NCBI RefSeq assembly: GCF_056746865.1
Contig: NZ_CM163382.1
Strand: one strand, 5' to 3'
DNA: 64,000 nucleotides
Part shown: positions 7,933-10,632 of the stretch, piece after piece
How positions within the stretch are numbered: position 1 is the first letter of the stretch
How the letters are laid out: each line of letters begins with the position of its first letter
Made by a program: the position numbers

Positions 7933-10632
7933 TGATGCAAACCAGCCCGCTGTTAACACAGCTTATGGAAGCACTGCGCTGTCTACCGGGCGTTGGCCCG
8001 AAGTCGGCGCAGCGTATGGCGTTCACGCTGCTTCAGCGCGATCGTAGCGGCGGGATGCGTCTGGCGCAGGCGCTCACCCGGGCGATGTCGGAAATCGGCC
8101 ACTGCGCCGATTGCCGCACTTTCACCGAACAGGAAGTCTGTAACATCTGTTCGAATCCGCGTCGTCAGGAAAACGGTCAAATCTGCGTGGTGGAGAGTCC
8201 GGCGGACATCTACGCCATTGAGCAGACGGGGCAGTTTTCAGGCCGTTATTTTGTGTTGATGGGGCACCTGTCACCGCTGGACGGCATCGGTCCGGATGAT
8301 ATCGGGCTTGATCGTCTGGAACAGCGTCTGGCAGAGGAAAAAATCACTGAAGTGATCCTCGCCACCAACCCCACGGTTGAAGGTGAAGCTACCGCTAACT
8401 ACATTGCCGAGCTTTGCGCGCAATATGGCGTGGAAGCCAGCCGAATCGCTCATGGCGTACCGGTTGGCGGCGAACTGGAAATGGTCGATGGCACCACGCT
8501 GTCACACTCCCTTGCCGGGCGTCATAAGATTCGTTTTTAAGCAAACGAGAGCAGGATCACCTGCTCTCGCTTGAAATTATTCCCCCTTGTCCCCATCTCT
8601 CCCTCATCCTGTTTTTAACCTTAAAATGGCATTATTGAGGTAGACCTACATGAAAGGACAAGAAACTCGTGGTTTTCAGTCAGAAGTGAAGCAGCTTCTG
8701 CACCTGATGATCCATTCTCTCTATTCCAATAAAGAAATCTTCCTGCGTGAGCTTATCTCTAACGCCTCCGATGCGGCGGACAAGCTGCGTTTCCGCGCGC
8801 TATCTAACCCTGACCTGTACGAAGGTGATGGCGAACTGCGCGTTCGTGTCTCTTTCGATAAAGACAAGCGTACGCTGACCATCTCCGATAACGGCGTGGG
8901 GATGACCCGCGACGAAGTGATTGACCATCTGGGGACTATCGCTAAATCCGGCACCAAATCATTCCTCGAATCCCTGGGTTCTGACCAGGCGAAAGACAGC
9001 CAGCTGATCGGTCAGTTTGGTGTTGGTTTCTACTCTGCTTTTATCGTGGCTGACAAAGTGACCGTGCGTACTCGCGCGGCAGGCGAAAAACCAGAAAACG
9101 GTGTTTTCTGGGAATCGGCTGGTGAAGGTGAATACACCGTTGCCGACATCACCAAAGAAGATCGTGGTACTGAAATCACCCTGCATCTGCGTGAAGGCGA
9201 AGACGAGTTCCTCGATGACTGGCGCGTGCGTTCCATCATCAGCAAATACTCCGACCATATCGCGCTGCCGGTAGAGATCGAAAAACGTGAAGAGAAAGAT
9301 GGCGAAACCGTTATCTCCTGGGAAAAAATCAACAAAGCGCAGGCGCTGTGGACTCGTAACAAGTCGGAAATCACCGATGAAGAGTACAAAGAGTTCTACA
9401 AACACATCGCCCACGACTTTAACGATCCGCTGACCTGGAGCCACAACCGTGTTGAAGGTAAGCAGGAGTACACCAGCCTGCTGTACATTCCGTCCCAGGC
9501 TCCGTGGGATATGTGGAACCGCGATCATAAACATGGCCTGAAACTGTACGTCCAGCGTGTGTTCATCATGGACGACGCAGAACAGTTCATGCCGAACTAT
9601 CTGCGCTTCGTGCGTGGTCTGATTGACTCCAGCGATCTGCCGCTGAACGTTTCCCGTGAAATCCTCCAGGACAGCACGGTAACGCGTAACCTGCGCAATG
9701 CGCTGACCAAGCGTGTGCTGCAAATGCTGGAAAAACTGGCGAAAGACGACGCGGAAAAATACCAGACCTTCTGGCAACAGTTTGGCCTGGTACTGAAAGA
9801 AGGTCCGGCGGAAGATTTCGCTAACCAGGAAGCGATCGCCAAACTGCTGCGTTTTGCTTCTACCCATACCGATTCTTCTGCGCAGACCGTGTCTCTGGAA
9901 GACTACGTTTCCCGCATGAAAGAAGGGCAGGAGAAAATCTACTACATCACCGCAGACAGCTATGCGGCAGCGAAGAGCAGCCCGCACCTGGAACTGCTGC
10001 GTAAGAAAGGCATCGAAGTTCTGCTGCTTTCCGACCGCATCGATGAGTGGATGATGAACTATCTGACTGAGTTCGACGGTAAACCGTTCCAGTCGGTGTC
10101 TAAAGTTGACGAGTCGCTGGAAAAACTGGCTGACGAAGTTGATGAGAGCGCGAAAGAAGCGGAGAAAGCACTGACTCCGTTCATCGACCGTGTGAAAGCC
10201 CTGCTCGGCGAGCGCGTGAAAGATGTCCGTCTGACTCACCGTCTGACCGATACGCCAGCGATCGTTTCGACCGACGCGGACGAAATGAGCACTCAGATGG
10301 CGAAACTGTTCGCTGCGGCGGGCCAGAAAGTGCCAGAAGTGAAATACATCTTCGAACTGAACCCGGATCACGTACTGGTGAAACGTGCGGCAGATACTGA
10401 AGATGAAGCGAAGTTCAGCGAGTGGGTAGAACTGCTGCTGGATCAGGCGCTGCTGGCAGAACGCGGCACGCTGGAAGATCCGAACCTGTTTATTCGTCGT
10501 ATGAACCAGCTGCTGGTTTCCTGATGTAATGCCGGATGACCTTCGTGTCATCCGGCATTTTTCTTTTCATCATCTGCACTTTCCGCAAATTATCTCGCCA
10601 TTAACCGTTTCAGCCTCAGGTGCCTTTCTTGA

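Follow-up and report, generated by a model that had tools for sequence, protein, structure and literature searches.

The sigma-32 promoter motif upstream of htpG in Escherichia coli and the recR hairpin that adjoins it

Genes and promoter elements between recR and htpG

The window, by which we mean the whole 64,000-nt (64-kb) stretch of DNA analysed here, carries the gene order dnaX-ybaB-recR-htpG-adk. The recR coding sequence (7935–8540, + strand; TIGR00615, 282 bits) ends in a TAA stop at 8538–8540 and closes the dnaX-ybaB-recR cluster, and the coding sequence of htpG, the bacterial Hsp90, follows on the same strand at 8650–10524 (NF003555, molecular chaperone HtpG, 862 bits, full length). 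Both genes are named by full-length equivalog models and bear the same names in the annotation of strain 118UI, which is 100% identical over 401 nt around the site; that annotation gives the same coordinates and enters no feature in the recR-htpG gap. The window belongs to E. coli, as 5,424 of the 5,426 complete genomes of this species match these 401 nt with no less than 95% identity. Much farther along, from 27007 to beyond 50000, lie a TolC-family gene, a 20.8-kb siiEA gene (a BapA-related giant adhesin) and type I secretion genes, a stretch that by its coordinates accounts for the ~28 kb absent between htpG and ybbN in K-12.

The recR-htpG gap is 109 nt long and houses a sigma-32 motif that a first, sequence-only reading had placed within the interval 8545–8650. 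On the + strand, the -35 element CTTGAAA (8570–8576; exact match, block score 11.8 bits) is followed by a C-rich 14-nt spacer, TTATTCCCCCTTGT (8577–8590), whose sequence varies between species, and by the -10 element CCCCATCT (8591–8598; exact match, block score 11.0 bits). The claim of CTTGAAA-N14-CCCCATCT at htpG thus proved exact to the base over 8570–8598. The hexamers CTTGAA and CCCCAT are 15 nt apart, as in the groS and clpP promoters and within the 12–15 nt spanned by the ten promoters used for training below, and the -10 element conforms to CCCCATNT with its upstream CC. The -35 element starts 80 nt ahead of the htpG ATG. Transcription would begin at an A at 8606 (+ strand), a position transferred from the mapped K-12 start, giving a 44-nt 5' UTR (8606–8649, + strand) with a Shine-Dalgarno GAGG at 8637–8640, 9 nt before the ATG. 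The fold of this UTR has a z-score of +0.11, indicating no notable structure, and an Rfam search over 8300–8900 returned no family (best match E 0.83, to an unrelated Staphylococcus sRNA model); together these results rule out an RNA thermometer or leader in the htpG 5' UTR.

The same 5' UTR has been interrupted in one of the 5,424 E. coli genomes. In E. coli SA186 (NZ_CP022730.1, 3222–4292) a copy of ISApl1, flanked by a 2-bp CC duplication, is inserted at +14/+15, equivalent to 8619–8620 of the window, and puts ~1.07 kb between the sigma-32 promoter and htpG.

Allowing two mismatches or fewer, CTTGAAA-N14-CCCCATCT has a single match on both strands of the 64-kb window. To score the site independently of htpG itself, a two-block sigma-32 matrix was trained on the 250 nt upstream of each of ten K-12 heat-shock genes (dnaK, groS, fxsA, clpB, grpE, clpP, lon, ibpA, hslV and htpX), with htpG excluded. 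The hexamers most enriched in these ten regions, found without a prior motif, were CTTGAA (7/10, p 2e-11), TTGAAA and CCCCAT. The htpG site scores 23.05 bits, within the training range of 19.6–27.7, and the weight-matrix scan, which the sequence-only reading had proposed as a check, puts it at the top of the window with the next hit at 16.5 bits. That reading's description of a close match to the sigma-32 consensus, correctly placed for htpG, is borne out in position, orientation and score.

Short bipartite consensus matches do arise by chance, and a resemblance of this kind devoid of promoter function has to be weighed. The chance expectation of the motif at two mismatches or fewer is 0.07 from dinucleotide-preserving shuffles, 7 of 100 of which contained a hit, and random 64-kb windows attain about 18 bits under the matrix (the maxima of 30 Markov-random windows have a mean of 17.8 and a peak of 20.7). 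The htpG site, however, is an exact match that stands above all 30 of these windows, and it lies in the correct place and orientation; conservation and mapping, described below, also weigh against a chance origin.

Other matrix hits in the window fall below the maximum of the random windows. The second-best, GTTGAA-N14-CCCCATGT (60306–60278, minus strand, 16.5 bits), has a score that taken alone is within the random-window range, and it sits between the ybbO stop and the start of cnoX (ybbN) at 60246. Because published sigma-32 ChIP work in K-12 has ybbN among its targets (signal 2.2), this site is probably the cnoX heat-shock promoter. A third candidate, CTGGAT-N14-CCCCATTT (7524–7553, + strand, 14.8 bits), occupies the last bases of dnaX, ahead of ybaB; a Term-seq 3' end classed as internal, K-12 494017 (window 7547), falls in this stretch. 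Cappable-seq gives no start downstream of it, and it is probably a chance match. One further hit, at 28353 (+ strand), scores 13.8 bits.

Conservation of the site and transcription mapping in K-12

To assess conservation, htpG loci were collected with a degenerate DNA pattern that encodes 11 residues of the HtpG N-terminus. It found 120 loci in Enterobacterales, Vibrionaceae, Pasteurellaceae and Orbaceae, of which 99 were usable. Within 300 nt upstream of the htpG anchor, a site of at least 15 bits is present in 92 of these 99 gammaproteobacterial species, with a median best score of 21.1 bits, compared with 1/99 when these segments are read on their other strand and 1/99 in 300 nt inside htpG. 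CTTGAA is almost invariant, and the -10 element shows lineage variants (CCTCAT or CCACAT in Vibrionaceae, TCTTAT in Pasteurellaceae). Across the 99 loci both hexamers stay fixed while the sequence of the spacer drifts, a pattern that, on the comparative evidence, marks a functional site made of two blocks. The motif is therefore upstream of, facing and conserved at a gene of the heat-shock regulon.

Published K-12 data allow the site to be set against mapped transcription. K-12 coordinates were converted to window positions by subtracting 486470. The offset between U00096.2 and the other K-12 genome version was taken by us to be 776, a value with which two start datasets agree at htpG (-44 vs -45) and at adk (-42 vs -40). 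The sources used were Mendoza-Vargas 2009, Ettwiller 2016, Adams 2021 and Waldminghaus 2010. By 454 sequencing, a 5' end was located 45 nt before the htpG ATG, 1 nt away from htpGp1 as given by RegulonDB; the box listed for it is ctctCGCTTGAAAttat (Mendoza-Vargas et al., PMC2760140 Table S1). The dominant Cappable-seq start at htpG is U00096.2 494300 (score 125.2), corresponding to 8606 of the window, accompanied by minor starts at 494318 (3.2) and 494328 (10.1), which correspond to 8624 and 8634, or +19 and +29 (PMC4782308).

Because the dominant start corresponds to 8606, CCCCATCT occupies -15 to -8 and CTTGAA -36 to -31, and the CC at -15/-14 constitutes an "extended -10". In K-12, whose elements are identical, the start falls within the distance past the -10 element, some 6–8 nt, that is expected of a sigma-32 promoter. 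The comparison with the mapped K-12 promoter that the sequence-only reading had suggested thus comes out in its favour: the -35 and -10 sequences are unchanged, and the mapped start, far from being at odds with the -10, sets CCCCATCT in the same register as the -10 of dnaK P1.

Occupancy data point to the same factor. Sigma-32 ChIP-chip in K-12 gives htpG a signal of 2.8, among the highest listed (PMC2996942 Table 2), and ChIP-exo finds a single predominant RpoH site at htpG (PMC9104697). The motif coincides with both the mapped start and the sigma-32 ChIP signal in K-12. Taken with its presence in 92/99 species against 1/99 in controls, this effectively refutes a chance resemblance, to which we give next to no credence. 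Fusions of the promoter, PhtpG-lacZ and htpG P1-lacZ, serve as reporters of sigma-32 activity (PMC3866087, PMC2215328), and expression burden induces the htpG promoter 10- to 1000-fold (bioRxiv 10.1101/177030).

Could sigma-70 be the main user of the motif, or share it with sigma-32, with TTGAAA acting as a sigma-70 -35? TTGAAA agrees with TTGACA at five of six positions and was labelled a sigma-70 -35 box by PATSER (PMC2760140); the Cappable-seq start comes from a dataset used irrespective of its growth condition; and a sigma-70-like -10 hexamer, TAAAAT (8622–8627, + strand; 5/6 match to TATAAT), precedes the minor start at 8634 by 7 nt. However, a consensus scan of 7800–9000 passes no promoter of the sigma-70 type, TTGAAA is followed 17 nt on by CATCTC, which makes a poor -10, and the -10 that is conserved, CCCCAT, is specific to sigma-32. 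We therefore consider a mainly sigma-70 or dual promoter quite improbable. TAAAAT itself lacks a matching -35, and the start that follows it amounts to only ~8% of the main one; the hexamer may be a weak secondary promoter behind this start, providing slight basal transcription.

More than one htpG promoter has been mentioned in earlier work (PMC9104697; bioRxiv 10.1101/177030), and the motif might accordingly be only one of two overlapping sigma-32 promoters, htpGp1 and htpGp2. Ceroni et al. cloned overlapping "htpG1" and "htpG2" fragments (bioRxiv 10.1101/177030), and the minor starts at +19 and +29 could be read in the same way. Yet over 8300–8650 the matrix finds no other site above 10 bits, which argues against a second sigma-32 site within the interval originally marked and agrees with the single predominant RpoH site in ChIP-exo. 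Two overlapping sigma-32 promoters are thus unlikely, though less so than a sigma-70 promoter. The second promoter reported previously may instead correspond to TAAAAT or to the minor starts at 8624 and 8634, and some htpG mRNA perhaps does not come from htpGp1.

The recR hairpin against the -35 element

The sequence-only reading was right about the promoter in 8545–8650, but it made no mention of a recR-distal hairpin that abuts the -35 element and fills the first 25 nt of this interval. The hairpin (8546–8569, + strand; -60 to -37 from the htpG transcription start) is a perfect 10-bp stem-loop, CGAGAGCAGG-ATCA-CCTGCTCTCG, with a 4-nt loop. It begins 6 nt past the recR stop and ends one base before the -35 hexamer. 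The GC-rich stem is stable, folding at -22.6 kcal/mol (z -5.4), and none of 200 shuffles was equally stable.

In K-12, the primary 3' end of recR mRNA was mapped by Term-seq to 495042, equivalent to 8572 on the + strand of the window (Adams et al. 2021, PMC7815308 supplementary file 1). The recR message accordingly ends within the -35 hexamer, 3 nt beyond the stem. The hairpin resembles intrinsic terminators in its GC-rich 10-bp stem, its 4-nt loop and an RNA 3' end 3 nt on; unlike them, it has a tail, CUUGAAAUUAUU, that is not a U-run because its bases form the -35 element. For want of a U-run it was passed over by a terminator scan that needs 5 T in 8. The recR 3' end may be a product of termination or of 3' trimming that halts at the stem.

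The position of this 3' end raises the question of whether CTTGAAA is conserved as the tail of a recR terminator rather than as a promoter element. The recR message does end inside CTTGAA, and in an extended fold GCUUGAAA pairs with UUUUAAGC at the recR stop. However, CTTGAA is equally conserved in Vibrionaceae, Pasteurellaceae and those Enterobacterales that lack an adjacent recR or have their hairpin well upstream, and it is always accompanied by a CCCCAT-type element at 12–15 nt. Species that have no adjacent recR contradict the terminator-tail explanation, which we regard as extremely unlikely.

Where recR does precede htpG, the hairpin keeps its place beside the promoter. recR is the next gene upstream of htpG in Enterobacterales only (63/112 loci), and we surveyed 36 genomes of Enterobacteriaceae and Erwiniaceae in which the recR stop is 31–34 nt from the -35 element. 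For each genome the longest stem ending at the -35 was taken, with shuffles fitted the same way. A stem was found in all 36, ending 0–2 nt from the C of CTTGAA, with a median length of 10 bp vs a mean of 4.2 bp in the shuffles. These stems have 31 different 5' arms, and every stem position shows several pair types across the 36 genomes, indicating compensatory change. Alignment of the hairpin region with MAFFT and folding with RNAalifold gave a consensus of 5 pairs (-1.8 kcal/mol), and did not bring the unlike stems into register. More distant Enterobacterales have a longer gap, with T-run-tailed hairpins sitting further upstream.

One further reading we put forward tentatively: the exact abutment of hairpin and -35 in Enterobacteriaceae and Erwiniaceae might be a selected regulatory arrangement, acting by insulation or by modulated binding of the sigma-32 holoenzyme, rather than simple compaction. 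We think this doubtful, if somewhat less so than the alternatives weighed above. Upstream transcription could be stopped at the edge of the promoter, shielding htpG from the constitutive dnaX-ybaB-recR cluster; polymerase pausing or terminating there could modulate binding of the sigma-32 holoenzyme; or the GC-rich dyad at -60 to -37 could itself do so. The region from -60 to -37 is the normal DNA contact zone of the C-terminal domains of the alpha subunits. A terminator set against a promoter is the sole mildly unusual aspect of the locus, and the abutment and its conservation may not have been described explicitly before. This packing of hairpin and -35 is a small example of terminator-promoter overlap and a minor architectural point.

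Function of the promoter and comparison with other heat-shock promoters

Taken together, exact elements, conservation and the K-12 data identify the motif almost certainly as the promoter from which sigma-32 (RpoH) drives htpG, the counterpart of K-12 htpGp1. By analogy, this strain would be expected to share with K-12 the start site, the occupancy by sigma-32, the induction by stress and the 3' end of recR. Sigma-32 RNA polymerase would place region 4 of the factor on CTTGAA and regions 2 and 3 on CCCCATCT, after which the DNA would be melted and transcription would start at the A at 8606, producing the 44-nt leader and then htpG. A rise in sigma-32 upon heat or unfolded-protein stress would in turn raise htpG transcription. 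On the upstream side, the hairpin at 8546–8569 would fix where the recR transcript ends, namely just inside the start of the -35 hexamer. As the recR message would end at the -35, htpG output would depend mainly on sigma-32 and not on read-through from dnaX-ybaB-recR, and the hairpin would in this way insulate htpG from upstream transcription.

The feature is already known, as htpGp1, and is ordinary apart from the adjoining recR hairpin. The htpG promoter routinely serves as a reporter of sigma-32 and a biosensor of burden. The K-12 elements are preserved intact in this clinical-type E. coli strain, and a call made from sequence was accurate at single-base resolution. The matrix, once validated at this site, also flags the likely cnoX (ybbN) promoter in the same window.

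The htpG promoter is among the founding examples from which the heat-shock promoter consensus was drawn. Relative to htpGp1 of K-12 MG1655, the promoter described here lies at the same locus, has the same -35 and -10 sequences and stands at the same distance from the ATG. Upstream of the ATG there are two single-base differences, one in the spacer at 8583 (C here, T in K-12) and one at 8604, position -2 (T here, A in K-12); the T at -2 is common to E. albertii and most enterics. These changes may bear on start-site choice or promoter strength.

The structural parallel is dnaK P1, for which the cryo-EM scaffold of the open complex carries CTTGAA from -35 to -30 and CCCCATTTA from -15 to -7 (PMC10216364). 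The -10 of htpG is in the register of CCCCATTT in that scaffold, and its -35 lies one base further upstream. The spacing in dnaK is 14, one nt shorter than in htpG, and the two promoters also differ in sequence, with CTTGAT in dnaK of K-12 and with CCCCATCT rather than CCCCATTT as the -10 of htpG. The dnaK P1 and groE (groS) promoters share with htpG the CTTGAA and CCCCAT elements, and groS shares the 15-nt hexamer spacing as well.
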